Positions 10,029 through 18,472 of a stretch of 38,651 nt of DNA are shown piece after piece. Each line of letters begins with the position of its first letter. The first letter of the stretch is position 1. The stretch covers positions 62,001-100,651 of the forward strand of contig JBEKXF010000022.1 in NCBI GenBank assembly GCA_049512315.1, written 5' to 3'. A program made the translations under genes and the position numbers. Source of the stretch: Candidatus Aminicenantales bacterium (GTDB taxonomy: Bacteria; Acidobacteriota; Aminicenantia; Aminicenantales; Saccharicenantaceae). The notes below the pieces were generated by a model. That model had not been told where the DNA came from and searched no databases. It was given only the letters and a program-made list of their open reading frames with translations.

Positions 10029-10154
10029 AGGGCGGCGGAAAAGTTCAGCCGCGGGCTTCGACTTCGCCGGAGAAGAGGTTGAAGTCATCGGAAACCCTCT
10101 CATCGACGGGGGGGGCGGCTTCTCGTCCCAGGCTGTTTCCGCAGATAAATGGCG

Positions 10155-11408
10155 TTAGGGGTGGGCCGGGTGGGCTGCGTCCGGCGGAGCCGGTCTGAGG
10201 ATGTCAGGCGGCAGCGTCCGACCTTTTTCAGCGTTCACGTAGATCCCGGCGACCGCCAGGTAAAGGACGATGGGAATGAACTGGGATCTCGGAATGGGGG
10301 CCACGAGCAGAAACGTAGAGGCCGAGGCCAGCATGGCCGAGAAGGGGCGCAGTCTGGGGGCCGCCAGGACCGACAAAGCGAGAAGGGCCAGCGCGATGGC
10401 GGGATAGAGACCGCTCGCGCCGACCCAGCTGAAGAATCCCGAGAGGACATTGGGGAAAAACGTCGTCATGGTGTCCCGGCTCTTGAGAATGAGGTTGAAG
10501 AGGATGGTGCTCTTGAAAACGGCCCTGACCCCATACGGAACCATGATCAAAACCGCCGTCGCCACAGCGAGGCCCGCGTCGGCCGCGATATCGATGAGCG
10601 ACTGGAGCCTCTTCGCCTCGAACTTGTTCCAGTAGTAGGCGGCCATGATGGGGGCGATCAGGAACTTGGTCATCAAGCCGATCCCGAAAAGAACGGCGAT
10701 GATGACCCGGTATTTCGTTTGAGGCCGGTCCTTTTCTTTCCTGATGGCCCAGAGGATCAGAGCCAGGGCGAGGAACGTCATGGCCGAATTGATATGGATT
10801 TCGGCGAACAGAAAAATCGGGAAAAAAGGCCACAGATATTTCCGCCGGATCTCGGGGAATGTCCGGATGAAAACCCAACAAACGAGACCGCGGAGAAGAA
10901 GGAAGACGATCGTCAGGATCCCAATATTCCAGCGCCCCGCGAAGAGACGGGCCAGGAAGTAGGGATAGATTTCCATGGGAGGGTAGTTGAAATTCCCGTA
11001 AACGGTCTGCGAAGACTCCCCCCGGTGGAAGATCGTCCCGCTCGTGTAGGGGTTCTGCCCGTTCCGCATCGCGACGAAAGCCGTGTCGTAATGATAGACG
11101 ATTTCGGCATCGGGATGGATCGTCAAGAATCCCAAGACGCCGAGGCCAAGGCCGACAAGCACGACGGCCGCCAGGAATCCCTTCCGGAACACCCACTCCG
11201 GCCTGACGCGATAAAGAAACCAAACGAAAAGCAAGGAAAACGTCAAGTTGACCATGAGATGATATGCATGCCCATGGGGAATAGGCTTGAGGATCGCCAT
11301 CAACAGGGAAAACAAGAAACAAAGGATGAGCGCGGTGGGGACGAGATAGTTTTTTCCGATGATCCTCAGCCGCTCCTGGAGCGCCGAATGCCGAGGTCCT
11401 TGATTCAC
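10155..11408 (-). CDS. polytopic membrane protein, probable GT-C fold (GT87/DUF2029-like) glycosyltransferase
   Basis: About 10-11 TM helices; first external loop with G.NPY ... FNYPP; GIGLMTKF lysine motif. Start codon uncertain. Confidence 0.6.
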   Translation of the reverse strand: MNQGPRHSALQERLRIIGKNYLVPTALILCFLFSLLMAILKPIPHGHAYHLMVNLTFSLLFVWFLYRVRPEWVFRKGFLAAVVLVGLGLGVLGFLTIHPDAEIVYHYDTAFVAMRNGQNPYTSGTIFHRGESSQTVYGNFNYPPMEIYPYFLARLFAGRWNIGILTIVFLLLRGLVCWVFIRTFPEIRRKYLWPFFPIFLFAEIHINSAMTFLALALILWAIRKEKDRPQTKYRVIIAVLFGIGLMTKFLIAPIMAAYYWNKFEAKRLQSLIDIAADAGLAVATAVLIMVPYGVRAVFKSTILFNLILKSRDTMTTFFPNVLSGFFSWVGASGLYPAIALALLALSVLAAPRLRPFSAMLASASTFLLVAPIPRSQFIPIVLYLAVAGIYVNAEKGRTLPPDILRPAPPDAAHPAHP

Positions 11409-11435
11409 GGGATTCCTGCCCCAGCGCCAGGCCTG

Positions 11436-11984
11436 CTAGCGCTGACTCTCTTTTCTTTGTCGCCGGCGGAGAAGCCAGAAGACGAGGAGAAGGGCCAGGG
11501 CCGCGAGAACGGCCGGGGCGACGACGGCGATGAAGGTCGTCACTCCGGAAACGACATCTTCGGCCAGACTGACGGCCGGATTGGCCGTGCCCAGAGTGCC
11601 GGCCGTGACGGCGGGACGGGCCGTGGCCTTGACCGTATGGACGCCGCCTGCGATGAGCAGGCCGCAGACCATGGCCAGCACCGGGCTCAGGTTGCTGATC
11701 ACGTTCCCGCTCGCGGCGAAGAGGACGGCCCCGGCGGCGGGCCGGATGACGGTCTGGATCACGTCGTTGACGGTGTCGACCGCCGGGATCTTATCGACGG
11801 TGATCTCGATCGCCAGCAGGACGGCGAGGATGACGAGCACCTCCGGATGGGTCAGAGCGCTCCAGGGCGTCTTGAGAGCGATGAAGTGGGTGTACCGGGC
11901 CAGCAGGCCGACGATCAGCAGGGGCAGATAGGCGTTCAATCCCGTCGCGGCGGCCAGGCCGAAAGCCGCTAGTAACCCCGTCAT
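11436..11984 (-). CDS. DUF4126 family membrane protein
   Basis: GLAAATGLNAYLPLL, EITVDKIPAVDTVND, IRPAAGA, NPAVSLAED motifs. Confidence 0.9.
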   Translation of the reverse strand: MTGLLAAFGLAAATGLNAYLPLLIVGLLARYTHFIALKTPWSALTHPEVLVILAVLLAIEITVDKIPAVDTVNDVIQTVIRPAAGAVLFAASGNVISNLSPVLAMVCGLLIAGGVHTVKATARPAVTAGTLGTANPAVSLAEDVVSGVTTFIAVVAPAVLAALALLLVFWLLRRRQRKESQR

Positions 11985-12555: not shown

Positions 12556-12623
12556 AACCGTTCGGCCTCCGCGGATCCGAACGCCCAGGCGGACGACAGG
12601 CCCGGATGCGGGTCTCCAGCACC

Positions 12624-12652
12624 TTGACAGCCCCGGGCCCCGGGGCTATGAT
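12624..12652 (+). promoter_or_regulatory. sigma70 promoter of the GH5 gene with a palindromic spacer
   Basis: TTGACA (12624-12629), 17 bp, TATGAT (12647-12652). The stretch 12629-12647 is AGCCCCGGG-C-CCCGGGGCT. Confidence 0.75.
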
Positions 12653-12686
12653 TTTTGGAAAGCGGCTTCGGAAGGAAACCAATGCC

Positions 12687-14006
12687 ATGAGACGAACCCT
12701 TCTCCCCATTTTGGTCATCTGTCTGCTCATCATGGGCTGCCGCCAACGACAGGAGCCCGGCCCCGCGGCCAAGCCGGCTGCCACGGCGGTCTCATCGGGT
12801 TTGCAAGCCGGTCCGGCTGATCCCGGAAAGTTCGTGACCGTCCGGGACGGGAAATTTATTTTGGACGGTCAGCCCTACCGTTTCGTCGGTGCCAATTTCT
12901 GGCAGGGAATGAATTTGGCCTCGAGCGGCCCGGGCGGCGACAGGACCCGGCTCCTTCAGGAGCTGGATCGCCTTCGCGAGCTCGGCGTGATCAACCTGCG
13001 CGTCGTGGCCGCCTCCGAGGGGCCCAATACCGAACCCCATCGGATCGTCCCCGCCCTGATGCTCTCCCCGGGAGTCTACGACGAGAAGCTCCTCGACGGC
13101 CTGGATTTTCTCCTGGCCGAGATGGGCAAGCGCGGGATGCGGGCCGTGATGGTTCTCAATAATTTCTGGCAGTGGTCCGGCGGCATGGCCCAGTACGTTT
13201 CGTGGCACGAGAAGACGCCCATCCCGTATCCGGGAGACTATGAGGTCTTCATCAACTTTTCGGCGAAATTCTACGCCTGTGCCGAGTGCCAGAGGTGGTT
13301 CCGCAACCACATCGCGATGCTCGTCGCCCGCACCAATCCGTATGCCGCCTTGAAATACCGGGACGACCCCGCAATTTTTTCTTGGGAGCTGGGGAATGAG
13401 CCGAGGCGATATCCCCAGAGCTGGATCGATGGGACAGCCTCCTACATCAAGTCTCTCGACCCTCATCATATGGTCACGACGGGGTCCGAAGGGGCTCCGC
13501 CGGAGGAGCCGACCCAGGATTTCGTCAAGACCCACGGCGGCCCCGATATCGATTACGTCACCATCCACATCTGGCCGCAGAATTGGGGCTGGTTCGATCC
13601 TCAAAACCCGTCGATGTACAAATCGGCGGAAGCCAAGGCGATGGCCTATTTTCAAAAGCATGCCAAGGAGGCCGCGGCCCTGCGGAAACCGCTCGTCCTC
13701 GAAGAATTCGGGTTGGCCCGCGATTGGGAGCCGGTCCACGACAACTACAACCCGGCTTCTCCGACAACCTACAAGGATCTCTTTTACGCGGCCCTCTATA
13801 AACAGGTCGAAGATTCGATAGCGGCCGGCGGCCCGGCGGCGGGCGACAACTTCTGGGCCTGGGCGGGGAAGGCGCGGCCGGGCCTCCCGTGGGTCGGCGA
13901 CCCGCCGCACGAACCCGCCGGCTGGTATTCCGTCTATGACACCGATGCCTCGACCCTAGCTATCGTCTCGGCCCATGCCAAAGACATGGCCAGGCGTTCA
14001 AAATAG
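12687..14006 (+). CDS. GH5 beta-mannosidase/mannanase (GH5_7-like), lipoprotein
   Basis: ATG 12687 after AAGGA; signal MRRTLLPILVICLLIMG-C; acid/base WELGNEP, nucleophile LEEFG; GDRTRLLQELDRL and GDPPHEPAGWYSVYD resemble Cellvibrio mixtus Man5A. Confidence 0.88.
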   Translation: MRRTLLPILVICLLIMGCRQRQEPGPAAKPAATAVSSGLQAGPADPGKFVTVRDGKFILDGQPYRFVGANFWQGMNLASSGPGGDRTRLLQELDRLRELGVINLRVVAASEGPNTEPHRIVPALMLSPGVYDEKLLDGLDFLLAEMGKRGMRAVMVLNNFWQWSGGMAQYVSWHEKTPIPYPGDYEVFINFSAKFYACAECQRWFRNHIAMLVARTNPYAALKYRDDPAIFSWELGNEPRRYPQSWIDGTASYIKSLDPHHMVTTGSEGAPPEEPTQDFVKTHGGPDIDYVTIHIWPQNWGWFDPQNPSMYKSAEAKAMAYFQKHAKEAAALRKPLVLEEFGLARDWEPVHDNYNPASPTTYKDLFYAALYKQVEDSIAAGGPAAGDNFWAWAGKARPGLPWVGDPPHEPAGWYSVYDTDASTLAIVSAHAKDMARRSK

Positions 14007-14090: not shown

Positions 14091-15320
14091 ATGATCATGA
14101 CTCATCACGCGTCCCCGAGGCATAGGCAGGATGGGGCGAAAAGCGACGGGATTTCGATTGTCATCGCGGCCGACTGGGCGCCGATCAGAGCCCTGGAGCC
14201 CGTGGTCCGCTCGGCCCCCGATACCGTCTACGGAGATATGCTGCCCGTCCTTCGCGGCGCCGACCTCAGGGTCGTCAACTGCGAATGTGCACTGACGGCG
14301 GCCCGGAAGCCCGTCTGGAAGAGCGGCGCGGTCTTCAAGGGCCTGCCCGCCCATCTCGCCGGCTTGACCCGGGTTCCGTTCGAGGTCGCCTGCCTGGCGA
14401 ACAACCATGTTTTCGACTACGGGGTCAGGGGTTTCCGGGATACGCTGGATCTCCTCCGTCGGAACGGGATCCGGACGGTCGGCGCGGGCCTCAGCTTTAA
14501 AGAGGCCTTATCGCCGCTGACCGTCCACGTGAGGGGGACGAGGGTCACGATCTTGAACTTCAGCGAGGGGGAGGACCTCACGGCCTCCCGGGGCGGGCCT
14601 GGCGTGTGCGGCTGGGAGATCGACCGGCTTCTTCCGCTCGCCCGGAGATCCAAAAAGCGGGGGGACTTCGTCATCGCCGTGGGGCACGCCGGCCTCGAAT
14701 ACATTCCTTTTCCTCCTCCTTACGTTGTCGAAGCCTACCGGGCCCTGGCCGAGGCCGGGGCGGACTGCGTCATCGGCCACCACCCCCATGTCCCGCAGGG
14801 CCTGGAAGTCCGGGGCGGACGGCTGATCCTCTACAGCCTGGGCAATTTCGTTTTTTACCAGCCGTCCGAACTGTATTATCGAAGGACCGGATTCTGCCTC
14901 CAGATCAACGTCCGGGGGAATTGCCTGTCCTCCTACGGATTGCACCCTTACAGGATCACGGAACGGGGGCTACGCAAGCTCGGCCGTCGTGAGGAGACAG
15001 AGCTTCTCGGCAAGCTCGGCCGCATCTCGGAACCCCTGAGATCCGCTTCAGGGATCGCCGAAGCCTGGCAGGCCTACCTCGCCTACTACGGGCCCGGCGG
15101 CTTCAAGAAAGAAGTCCTCGGCATCCTGGAGAAGATGGAATCCGAACCGCGGAAAGGCGCGGCGATGTTCCGGAACAGAATCACGACGCTCCAGCATTCC
15201 GAACTGTGGCGGGACGTCCTGACTCGGTTCATGGCTGAGAAGGAAAGCCCTGTCCCGGCCGGGATGACACGGCTCATCGAGGAGTGGTTCACGAAAACTA
15301 CGCCCTCCGGAAGCGTCTAA
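14091..15320 (+). CDS. CapA/PgsA family metallophosphoesterase-fold protein, cytoplasmic
   Basis: Motifs IAADW, VVNCE, LANNHVFDYG, HAGLEY, IGHHPHVPQG, YSLGNF; no signal peptide or TM anchor. Start could be 14091 or 14097. Confidence 0.88.
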   Translation: MIMTHHASPRHRQDGAKSDGISIVIAADWAPIRALEPVVRSAPDTVYGDMLPVLRGADLRVVNCECALTAARKPVWKSGAVFKGLPAHLAGLTRVPFEVACLANNHVFDYGVRGFRDTLDLLRRNGIRTVGAGLSFKEALSPLTVHVRGTRVTILNFSEGEDLTASRGGPGVCGWEIDRLLPLARRSKKRGDFVIAVGHAGLEYIPFPPPYVVEAYRALAEAGADCVIGHHPHVPQGLEVRGGRLILYSLGNFVFYQPSELYYRRTGFCLQINVRGNCLSSYGLHPYRITERGLRKLGRREETELLGKLGRISEPLRSASGIAEAWQAYLAYYGPGGFKKEVLGILEKMESEPRKGAAMFRNRITTLQHSELWRDVLTRFMAEKESPVPAGMTRLIEEWFTKTTPSGSV

Positions 15321-16297
15321 AGGCCGCAGCGTCGGCGGGCGGATTCGATGATCGCGCCGATGAGCCGGCGATAGTCCTCCTCTTCCCCTAGCGGCGACGC
15401 GTGGTAGAGCGTGTAGATCTGTGGGGCCCAGCTCTTGTGGGGCTTGAGCCCGGGGATGCCGTTGACTTCGATGATCCGGAGTCGGCCGGCCGCGTCGACC
15501 CTCATGTCGATGCGGACGTGATCCAGGCACCTCATTGTCTCGGCGGCCTTGTCGCACAGCCGCCGCGCTTCCTCCGTTCTCTCCCCCGCCAGACTGATCC
15601 TCGTCAGGCCGACGCCCCGGAGGTCCGTCCGGAGAATCCGATAGTTCTTGTAGTGCTTCTCTTCGACCGAGACCAGCCCGGGCAGGCATTCCCGGGTTTC
15701 CCCGTTGCCCAGAACCAGGGCCGTGTATTCGGCGCCAGGCAGGAATTCCTCGACCAGAGCGGGCTGGTCGAACTCCCGCTCGACGTAGCCCACGCGCCGT
15801 CCGAGCTCCTCTTCGTTGTGGACGACGCTCTCGTCTGAGATGCCGACCGACCGGGATTCGCAGATGGGCTTGACGAAAGCCGGGTAGGTGACCGGAGTGA
15901 CGTCGTCTCCCGTCTGGAGCAGGATATGGGCGGGGACGGCGACACCGCCGGCGGCCAGGATCTCGTGGGTCTGGAACTTGTCGATCATGGCCTTCATGGT
16001 CCGGCTGTCCGAACCGATGTAGGGGATCTTCCGGGCGTCCAGCTCATCGGCCACCCATATCCCGGCCGAATTCCTGCCGATGAACTTCTCGTTGGGCGTG
16101 ATGTGGTAGAGGGCGCTCCAGACGATGTCGAAGTCGGGCCGGTCGATGAGGCGGAAGAATTCCGCTTCATCGGCGATATAGGCGATCCGCGTCGGGCAGC
16201 CCCAGGACTCGGCGGCTTCCCGGACGGACTCCGTGACCTTCATGTCCCCCCAGCCCTGGGCATCTCCTCCGGGGCCTGTCAACAGGACGATTCTCAT
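15317..16297 (-). CDS. ATP-grasp ligase, D-Ala-D-Ala ligase-like with divergent substrate site
   Basis: IPYIGS, MIDK, FVKP..ESRSVGI, VEEFLPG, RIDMR, IEVNGIPGL are present. The Ddl motifs GGxSxE, LHGxxGEDG and the omega-loop KY are absent. Confidence 0.85.
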   Translation of the reverse strand: MRIVLLTGPGGDAQGWGDMKVTESVREAAESWGCPTRIAYIADEAEFFRLIDRPDFDIVWSALYHITPNEKFIGRNSAGIWVADELDARKIPYIGSDSRTMKAMIDKFQTHEILAAGGVAVPAHILLQTGDDVTPVTYPAFVKPICESRSVGISDESVVHNEEELGRRVGYVEREFDQPALVEEFLPGAEYTALVLGNGETRECLPGLVSVEEKHYKNYRILRTDLRGVGLTRISLAGERTEEARRLCDKAAETMRCLDHVRIDMRVDAAGRLRIIEVNGIPGLKPHKSWAPQIYTLYHASPLGEEEDYRRLIGAIIESARRRCGL

Positions 16298-16309
16298 GGC
16301 GCTTCTCCG

Positions 16310-17239
16310 TCAAAAAAGTTCGGGGATCAGAGTGTATTCGATCAGGGCGCGGGCCGTCCGGGCGGACACGGGCTCAAGCCGCCGGGCCACGGCCCTTCGC
16401 TGGGCTTCGGCGAGCTCAACCTTGGAAATGACTTTCACCGCGATATCCGCCTCGGTGCCCTCCGGCCTCCGGTCTCCCAGTCCGGCCGTCAGGCTCCTGA
16501 CGAGATGCTCGTTGGGATCGAGGACCTCGATCTTGGCCCCGGTCCGCCGTTCGAGCGATGCCCGGAAGATATCCGCGATATAGGAATAATGGGTGCAGCA
16601 AAGACCCGCGTAAAGGGTGCCGTCGACCTTTATTCCTTGAATGGCCCGGGAGACGCACTCCTCGACCAGGCCGGCCAAGCCGGGGGAATCGGGATCTTTG
16701 TCGATGGCCCCCGCCAGCCCGTGACAGGCGGCCGCGAGGACGCGCCGGGCGTCGATCCCTCTCCGGATCAACCTGCGGACGTGTTCCCCCGACTCGATCG
16801 TCGTCCGCGTCCCGAAAAGCACGAGGATGCCCTTGGGGTCCCGCGTCAGGGCTTCGTGAAAGAGGTCGATTCCCTCCTCGATGATGCCGGCCACGGGGAC
16901 CGTTGGCGCCCGGCTGAATTCGGTCAGGTCATAGAGGATGGACAGGGTATTGCAGGCGATGAGGATGAGGCCGGGCCGGAAGGCCGTCATCGCGGCGAGG
17001 GCCTTGTCGAGAACGGCGGCGCGGGAGGCGATGTCCGAAAGATCGTTATATCCGCCCCGGGAGTCTGGCCAGGCATTCACGTAGACGAGGCGGTTGGCCC
17101 AGTTCCCGGGGGCGCCGCGCAGACGCTTCTCCAGCTCGGAGCATATGGACAACCCGCCCAGGCCCGAGTCGGTGATCACGATGCGCCAATCGCTTTTCCC
17201 GCCGAGGAGGTCAGGGAGGCTTCTCATCGGCGCCGGCAT
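16310..17239 (-). CDS. Asp/Glu racemase family protein (MurI-like, two catalytic Cys)
   Basis: TDSGLGGLS, IACNT, LCCTHY. The MurI D...PYG loop is replaced by NAWPDSRGGYN. Confidence 0.85.
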   Translation of the reverse strand: MPAPMRSLPDLLGGKSDWRIVITDSGLGGLSICSELEKRLRGAPGNWANRLVYVNAWPDSRGGYNDLSDIASRAAVLDKALAAMTAFRPGLILIACNTLSILYDLTEFSRAPTVPVAGIIEEGIDLFHEALTRDPKGILVLFGTRTTIESGEHVRRLIRRGIDARRVLAAACHGLAGAIDKDPDSPGLAGLVEECVSRAIQGIKVDGTLYAGLCCTHYSYIADIFRASLERRTGAKIEVLDPNEHLVRSLTAGLGDRRPEGTEADIAVKVISKVELAEAQRRAVARRLEPVSARTARALIEYTLIPELF

Positions 17240-17240
17240 C

Positions 17241-18428
17241 TCATTCGGCCGCGTTCGGCGCGGCGTTCGGGTCTTCGAGGAAATCCTGGCGGATCCGGTC
17301 GAGGAGGCGCGGCTCGGTCAAGATGCGGAAGCCCGCGCAAGCCAGGAAGAAGACGCCGTCGAGGAGGGCGCGCTCGCCGCTGGCCCCCACGGCGTCCCGG
17401 GCGAATTCCTCGGTGTGGATAAGGAAATCACTGGCTTTGACCATTGGCTCGATCGTCGGGACGACCTGGGACACGTTGGCCAGGTCGGTCGAACCATAGG
17501 ATTCCCGTGTTTTCCTGGGCTCAGACCGCCCGCGGTCCTCGAACAGCCCCGCGAACAGGTCCTCCAAGGCGGGGTTTCGCCGGAAGGTCGTCACGCCGGG
17601 CCCGGGCTCGGTGACCTGGCACCGGCATCCGGTGGCCGCCGCGGCCGCCTGAGCCAGGGCCGTGACCTGTTCGAAGAGCCCCTCGAGCTTCGGCAAGGTG
17701 TCCGCCCGGAGCGAGAACCTGCCGCGGGAATAGTCAGGGATGATGTTCGGCGCCTGCCCTCCCTCCTCGATGATGCCGTGGAAGAGGCAGCCCGCGGGAA
17801 GCTTGGTTCGGGGCAGAGCCGCCGAATGGTAAAAGAGGACGAGCGCGTCCAGGGCATTGATCCCTTCCCGCGGCGCGGCCGCGGCATGAGCCTTCTTGCC
17901 GAAGTATTCGACGACGAGCGTGCGCCGGGCCATGGCCTGGCCGACGACCGTGTCCAGCGCGTGCGGGTGGACCTGGAGGACAACGTCGGAATTCTCGAAG
18001 ACGCCGTCCTGGATCATCCGGACTTTGCCGCTGCCCCTTTCCTCGGCGGGCGTTCCGACGACCTCGATCGTGCCGCCGACCTCGGGGCCGATGACGGATT
18101 TGAGGACGACGGCGGCGTACGTCCCGGCGGCGGCGATGATGTTGTGTCCGCAGGCGTGGCCGAGGCCGGGCAGAGCGTCCATTTCGGCCGTGAACGTCAC
18201 CCGGGGCCGGCCGGCGGCGAGCCTGGTAACGGCCCGGAACGAGGTCGGGAGGGAACTCGTCGCCGGGGATACGGTGAAGCCCTCGGCCGAGAGGACGGAC
18301 TGGAGCAGGTGCGACGTCCGGACTTCCTGGAAAGCCAGCTCGGGGTCGGCATGGATGCGCCGGCTCAGGCCCAGGATGTCGGCCCGGCGGCGTTCGATCT
18401 CCTTCGCGATGTCGGCGCACGTCATCAT
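17241..18428 (-). CDS. M20D amidohydrolase (ACY1L2/PM20D2/HmrA-like)
   Basis: HADPELAFQE, AEMDALPGLGHACGHN, GTPAEE, VHP, GKKAHAAAAP, GSTDLANVS. Confidence 0.92.
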   Translation of the reverse strand: MMTCADIAKEIERRRADILGLSRRIHADPELAFQEVRTSHLLQSVLSAEGFTVSPATSSLPTSFRAVTRLAAGRPRVTFTAEMDALPGLGHACGHNIIAAAGTYAAVVLKSVIGPEVGGTIEVVGTPAEERGSGKVRMIQDGVFENSDVVLQVHPHALDTVVGQAMARRTLVVEYFGKKAHAAAAPREGINALDALVLFYHSAALPRTKLPAGCLFHGIIEEGGQAPNIIPDYSRGRFSLRADTLPKLEGLFEQVTALAQAAAAATGCRCQVTEPGPGVTTFRRNPALEDLFAGLFEDRGRSEPRKTRESYGSTDLANVSQVVPTIEPMVKASDFLIHTEEFARDAVGASGERALLDGVFFLACAGFRILTEPRLLDRIRQDFLEDPNAAPNAAE

Positions 18429-18442
18429 GTTTTTTTCGCCTT

Positions 18443-18472
18443 ATGATAATTCAAAATGAAAAACCAAGTCAA
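18443..18472 (-). promoter_or_regulatory. sigma70-type promoter of the M20-racemase-ligase operon
   Basis: TTGACT (18472-18467), 18 bp AT-rich spacer, TATCAT (18448-18443). ATG follows 14 nt later with no SD. Confidence 0.6.

Follow-up and report, generated by a model that had tools for sequence, protein, structure and literature searches.

The window analysed here is a stretch of 38,651 nucleotides from the genome of a Candidatus Aminicenantales bacterium (assembly GCA_049512315.1, contig JBEKXF010000022.1, positions 62,001 to 100,651 of the forward strand). It carries a cassette of four genes coding for a CapA-family protein, a ligase related to D-alanine–D-alanine ligase (Ddl), a MurI-like racemase and an M20 amidohydrolase (Table 1). 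The families proposed for these open reading frames in a first-pass annotation, made from the letters of the sequence, were recovered with Pfam models (PGA_cap, E-value 6.7e-56; Dala_Dala_lig_C, 2e-19; Asp_Glu_race, 1.6e-11; and Peptidase_M20); among the NCBIfam models, a cut-off was exceeded only by the M20 protein (TIGR01891, 178.6 bits, cut-off 153.75). The M20, racemase and ligase genes form a tight trio on the minus strand, with intergenic gaps of 1 and 12 nt, and the CapA gene runs head-on towards them, its stop codon overlapping that of the ligase gene by 4 nt, as the annotation had described. Its statement that the window is devoid of capB, capC and mur genes also holds for the 35 open reading frames scanned with Pfam. 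The GC content of the cassette is the same as that of its flanks, and a search of a plasmid collection gave no match at 1e-30.

Table 1. Genes and promoter-like site of the cassette (positions in the window)
Feature	Position	Strand	Remarks
CapA/PgsA-family calcineurin-like soluble enzyme, MslH-like	14091..15320	+	409 aa; PGA_cap; exact start codon uncertain
Ddl-fold ATP-grasp ligase, uncharacterised QGWG subfamily	15317..16297	-	326 aa; catalytic residues kept, substrate pockets rebuilt
MurI-like two-cysteine racemase, divergent	16310..17239	-	309 aa; D24 S25, C96 N97 T98, C215 T216 H217
M20D amidohydrolase, HmrA/PM20D2 (Xaa-Arg dipeptidase) type	17241..18428	-	395 aa; lineage-specific hydrolase of the cassette
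Sigma70-type promoter-like site TTGACT-N18-TATCAT	18443..18472	-	14 nt upstream of the M20 start; predicted

The trio was also thought to have a promoter of its own, and a sigma70-like site does lie in the 51-nt gap that follows queA. The same pattern was detected in 30 of the 33 regions upstream of M20 orthologues, which come from kindred genomes, against 32 of 6400 random control windows; the three minus-strand genes therefore probably have their own promoter, predicted as a conserved site. In the orthologues the -10 hexamer stands 8–17 nt, mostly 15, before the M20 start codon, which implies a very short leader (window 18428–18443).

A scan of genomes confirmed 101 relatives of the ligase and returned 79 loci, and a separate set of 80 metagenome loci was analysed. 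The racemase gene was found in 77 and the CapA gene in 74 of the 79 genome loci. When linkage was defined as the presence of the partners within 8 kb of the ligase gene in loci having at least 2.5 kb of flank on each side, both partners flanked the ligase gene in 60 of 63 genome loci, spanning four phylum-level groups, and both were near it in 21 of 22 metagenome loci. The titles of the records with loci include Aminicenantes, Terriglobia, Vicinamibacterales, Holophaga, Syntrophales, Desulfobacterales, Kiritimatiellia, Lentisphaerae and Spirochaetota. Gene order varies: racemase and ligase genes are met by a convergent CapA gene in 52 of the 79 loci, the order CapA–racemase–ligase in one direction is found in 19, and ligase–CapA–racemase in one. 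The co-directional CapA gene of these 20 loci indicates that CapA belongs to the unit. In Acidobacteriota it is convergent, with stop codons overlapping or within 30 nt of each other in 35 of 51 cases. The cassette is thus a real and conserved set of genes of known enzyme families, the core unit of which is CapA, racemase and ligase. A literature search covering titles and the starts of abstracts, with subscription journals mostly missing, returned no description of this gene combination.

Strong co-occurrence is also seen among 60 relatives from the same order, where orthologues of the ligase, CapA and M20 genes are confined to the identical 11 genomes; these are kin and do not represent independent events. 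The cassette is rare, being present in four of 400 sampled genomes of its own phylum and in none of 400 from the phylum of another genome (G094). For 55 sequences with three full-length genes (54 of the 79 loci and the query), pairwise distance correlations between the gene trees were 0.84–0.93, and well-supported splits were shared in 15 of 31, 16 of 31 and 17 of 29 cases; with no control gene this is a weak indication, which we do not count as co-evolution.

The M20 protein matches the PM20D2/HmrA group of M20D dipeptidases over its full length (HmrA, 9e-70; Xaa-Arg dipeptidase, 1e-57), including the metal-binding motif GHACGHN. Its proposed membership of the cassette stands for this lineage, where it follows the ligase and CapA genes into the same 11 relatives; unlike PM20D2/HmrA, it is swapped for unrelated hydrolases outside Aminicenantes-labelled genomes. 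The hydrolase genes neighbouring the 79 loci code for M20 (36 loci, leaving out matches below 45% identity), FGase-fold (13), class I GATase-fold (seven) and CbiZ-family (one) proteins, the FGase-fold gene standing after the ligase gene and the class I GATase/C26-fold gene beside that of CapA. A class IV aminotransferase resembling D-transaminases is encoded in the operon in six of the 79 loci, and in five of these an alanine racemase gene is found alongside. Of the non-canonical motif of D-amino-acid transaminases, which also includes a Thr/Tyr position (Table 2 of PMC10003956), the aminotransferase retains R27, F32 and R90; the transaminase treated in PMC11673721 is a different one and was not used for comparison. 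The nature of these neighbours suggests chemistry of D-Ala and D-Glu. Canonical MurI went undetected in four of the six genomes with the transaminase gene, against five of the 15 remaining distant carriers, a difference that is suggestive only. At one of these loci (L137:1267-5700) an alanine dehydrogenase gene lies upstream of the transaminase and alanine racemase genes, and at another cassette locus (L134:1371-5738) a TRAP-type transporter is encoded directly upstream of CapA.

The predicted structure of the ligase is confident (pLDDT 92), and its best structural matches are Ddl enzymes (TM about 0.7, 18–24% identity); matches in the ESM Atlas bear generic Ddl-family names only. The protein failed the Ddl models TIGR01205 (83.4 bits, cut-off 245.65) and PRK01372 (92 bits, cut-off 243). 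It retains the ATP-grasp fold with the ATP/Mg and oxyanion-hole residues, and K107, K143, E183, R262, D264, E277, N279, G283 and S289 are invariant in 35 ligase sequences. In comparison with the Ddl encoded elsewhere in this genome, Y64 replaces the donor-site His, GEDG is lost, the P-loop GSS has become SRS and the KY of the omega loop LRG; for these elements, as for the amino-binding Glu of Ddl, we assume the roles generally ascribed to them in Ddl work. D12, invariant in 35 of 35 sequences, aligns near the position of that Glu, the donor pocket is aromatic (W16, W60, Y64 and W81), and the invariant R149, R227, K285 and K288 suggest, from sequence, an anionic acceptor. Profile searches revealed a wider QGWG ligase subfamily around the cassette ligase, in which several of these residues are not kept; a cluster look-up of ten distant ligases yielded neither informative names nor gene contexts. 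A separate canonical Ddl is encoded on contig C3 of this genome, with murCDEF on C18, and a Ddl above the cut-off is present in all 21 distant carriers, those of the co-directional clade. The cassette ligase is not the housekeeping Ddl; it represents an uncharacterised Ddl-like subfamily with fixed racemase and CapA partners. The idea that it runs in reverse to make ATP was rejected on general thermodynamic grounds. Elsewhere in the genome, a tandem pair of Ddl-like ligase genes adjoins a KamA-family aminomutase gene (contig C6, L056:6310-11587), and similar pairs are found in most relatives.

With its Ddl fold, conserved catalytic residues and layout of racemase, ligase and hydrolase genes, the cassette is reminiscent of Ddl/Van-type clusters. 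By the logic of VanC, VanT and VanXY, the racemase and ligase would provide MurF with an alternative D-Ala-D-Xaa, for example D-Ala-D-Glu, and removal or recycling of stem dipeptides would fall to the hydrolase and CapA. The racemase–ligase–dipeptidase triad, the alanine racemase and D-transaminase-like genes of some operons and the full murCDEF set of the genome are consistent with such a remodelling of the peptidoglycan stem. However, the donor and acceptor pockets are rebuilt, with loss of the donor-site His, GEDG and omega-loop KY, the racemase is of the Cys type, and Van clusters have no place for CapA. Moreover, no mur or D,D-peptidase gene was detected among the neighbours scanned, and the canonical Ddl is retained in this genome and throughout the distant carriers. 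We consider stem remodelling unlikely.

Like MurI, the cassette racemase carries the catalytic motifs DSG, CNT and CTH, conserved without exception in the 39 sequences aligned, and its matches in the PDB are nearly all glutamate racemases. Unlike MurI, it reaches only 49.6 bits with TIGR00067 (cut-off 146.65), and the PYG loop, which we take to bind the glutamate side chain in MurI, is replaced by WP-x4-GYN. It further differs in having a sister clade (L185–L199, e.g. L191:7982-9010; 32–40% identity) with mostly signal-peptide-like N-termini. Members of that clade occur without ligase or CapA genes; a hydrophobic N-terminal segment is present in 14 of 15, some of them lipoprotein-like, and several are encoded beside gamma-glutamyltranspeptidase, amidohydrolase, penicillin amidase or hydantoinase genes. 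Judged from these sequences, the sister clade is possibly an exported MurI-like racemase.

Whether the genome also has a separate murI, a point raised in the first-pass annotation, received a divided answer. One was found in 12 of the 21 distant carriers, so in general the cassette racemase does not fill the cell-wall role; no MurI scored above the cut-off in this genome or its 60 relatives, nor in any of 20 other Acidobacteriota carriers. As no canonical murI was found here, the racemase may moonlight, also serving as the cell-wall MurI of this organism. The genome has murD; Asp-racemase-family genes, present in 59 of the 61 genomes of the order and including the other two racemases of this genome, are candidate sources of its cell-wall D-Glu. 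An enolase-superfamily epimerase was dismissed as the complementary gene since the family occurs in 60 of the 61 genomes and is uninformative. No D-transaminase orthologue was found in this genome, and a MurL model gave no match, but the controls were blank too, so that absence of MurL is not shown. These negative results would suit an explanation in which the racemase is simply the organism's murI and the remaining genes are loosely linked housekeeping stand-ins. Against this, 49 of the 60 relatives lack both the cassette and a MurI above the cut-off, Asp-racemase-family genes are nearly ubiquitous in the order, distant carriers often possess their own MurI, and linkage survives gene rearrangement. 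Loose linkage is refuted. We therefore regard this explanation as very improbable.

CapA passed the PGA_cap model PF09587 (190 bits, gathering score 27). Its cytoplasmic location, proposed earlier, agrees with the prediction of no N-terminal hydrophobic, signal or membrane segment in 70 of 70 sequences, and no signal-like N-terminus was seen in any cassette racemase, ligase or CapA. In a structural search, the lasso-peptide C-terminal epimerase MslH (PDB 8GQ9/8ITG) came first (4.8e-21), ahead by about 10 orders of magnitude of 5'-nucleotidases and YmdB-type phosphoesterases. Residues D28, E65, N105, H106, D109, H199 and H233 of CapA are invariant in 34 of 34 sequences. According to PMC10406935, epimerization by MslH requires the pairs His88/Asp91 and His295/Asp11. 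Both are kept: H106/D109 and H233 were matched by alignment, and D28, which falls beyond the aligned region, from its place in the motif. Of the four MslH metal ligands, Glu44, Asn87 and His259 correspond to E65, N105 and H199; His261 corresponds to G201, with the invariant E203 nearby. Unlike MslH, CapA thus has an HxGxE motif, and it is paired with a ligase and a racemase; it failed the MslH model NF038314 (60.3 bits, cut-off 700), and no lasso-peptide genes were detected among the cassette neighbours scanned.

The structural neighbours that follow MslH allow another explanation, in which the ligase joins a D-amino acid to a non-peptide partner, as acceptor or donor, such as a cofactor, a solute or an acyl compound, and CapA acts in that route as a hydrolase or phosphoesterase dependent on metal and not as an epimerase. 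The aromatic donor pocket would fit such a partner, and the interchangeable hydrolases (FGase, GATase, CbiZ) have folds of acyl-amino-acid amidases. The wide lead of MslH in the structural search argues against it, as do the acidic D12, which stands where Ddl has its amino-binding Glu, and the lack of a recurring cofactor pathway gene among the neighbours. On balance, a non-peptide conjugate seems quite unlikely.

CapA had been called an orphan. This is correct for the window, but a pgsB–pgsC–TIGR04332 locus without capA lies on contig C7 (L180:9877-12475), and the window CapA is the only PGA_cap match of the genome. capC is present in all 61 genomes of the order, which suggests, on sequence grounds, lineage-wide synthesis of poly-gamma-glutamate (PGA). 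The cassette might then be an optional accessory to this synthesis, either as a source of D-Glu or in the editing or recycling of gamma-glutamyl oligomers of PgsBC, or might make a glutamyl polymer independently of CapBC. PMC8179263 proposes CapA as the PGA epimerase, and capC is found in 16 of 20 other Acidobacteriota carriers. It was found, however, in only one of the 21 distant carriers, whose completeness is not given, which indicates that the cassette does not need capC. Most capC-bearing relatives are without a cassette CapA. The CapA of PgsBCA/CapBCA systems has a membrane anchor; the cassette protein shares their PGA_cap domain, lacks the anchor and is encoded on a different contig from pgsBC, and the ligase has a Ddl dipeptide-ligase fold. 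PgsA was later reportedly identified as an epimerase, a report that our literature search did not retrieve. A role in PGA metabolism appears improbable, and of the three roles first suggested, a stem variant, a storage or solute peptide and a glutamyl polymer, the last has the least support.

The three core genes stay associated from locus to locus, their soluble products retain the catalytic residues, and in most cases a hydrolase gene accompanies them. The reading that we prefer, tentatively and somewhat short of calling it probable, is the cytoplasmic synthesis, epimerization and turnover of a small non-ribosomal peptide of the Xaa-D-Glu type. The racemase would supply an acidic D-amino acid, either D-Glu or one related to it. 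The ligase would activate a donor bearing a free amino group as its acyl-phosphate and couple it to the acidic D-acceptor in the pocket rebuilt with basic residues, and the D-form would protect the product against ordinary peptidases. CapA, acting like MslH, would then invert the C-terminal residue, and M20, or elsewhere the FGase-fold or class I GATase-fold hydrolase, would cleave the epimerized peptide and free its amino acids. With similar reserve, the acidic product may well be Xaa-D-Glu, Xaa possibly being D-Ala, and the cassette bearing this pathway could be mobile and accessory. Apart from its additional synthetic arm, such a route resembles the step of murein-peptide recycling that is carried out by a dipeptide epimerase and a dipeptidase. 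The peptide could serve as a store, a solute or a signal. What we infer is the product and the chemistry of its synthesis, editing and recycling, and the interpretation offered in the first-pass annotation is in this sense partly supported.

Several observations weigh against this pathway. The MurI loop presumed to bind the glutamate side chain is altered in the cassette racemase, and D12, R149 and W290 are missing from the QGWG ligases that are more distant. The catalytic residues of MslH are largely those of metallophosphoesterases, its H261 is replaced by Gly and structural identity is 18%, so that CapA could be a hydrolase. In five of the six cassette-linked transaminases Phe replaces the Thr/Tyr of the motif; racemase, epimerase and D-transaminase are, besides, partly redundant. 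Finally, the carrier genomes are kin, and the counts consequently overstate independence.

The surroundings of the cassette contain other genes of interest. A 466-aa gene (window 12606–14006) without a Pfam match precedes CapA in 22 of the 79 loci and, judged by its motifs, presumably resembles GH5 mannanases. A promoter-like site matching 11 of 12 positions (12624–12652) overlaps its first codons, and the true start is therefore probably downstream. Linkage of this gene and of queA to the cassette is confined to Aminicenantes-labelled loci, and both were excluded as members of the system. A 607-aa open reading frame (window 10149–11972), also without a Pfam match, adjoins the cassette in two of the 80 metagenome loci as well.

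In anaerobes, the proposed pathway could take the form of a hitherto unknown stereochemical lock-and-release cycle, in which the Ddl-derived ligase stores nitrogen or an osmolyte as peptidase-resistant Xaa-D-Glu and the soluble CapA-family epimerase makes this peptide accessible to an L-specific hydrolase. We regard this version as speculative and rather doubtful; if true, it would unite a Ddl-fold ligase that accepts D-Glu with a CapA-family dipeptide epimerase, independent of capsule synthesis and of the synthesis of ribosomally synthesised and post-translationally modified peptides. A ligase accepting D-Glu would, in addition, be a novel biocatalyst for the production of D-peptides. A by-product of the analysis is that canonical MurI was found in none of the 61 genomes of the order, though the query genome has murD. 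Small and fully soluble, the cassette offers a test bed for the role of CapA/PGA_cap proteins outside capsule loci.

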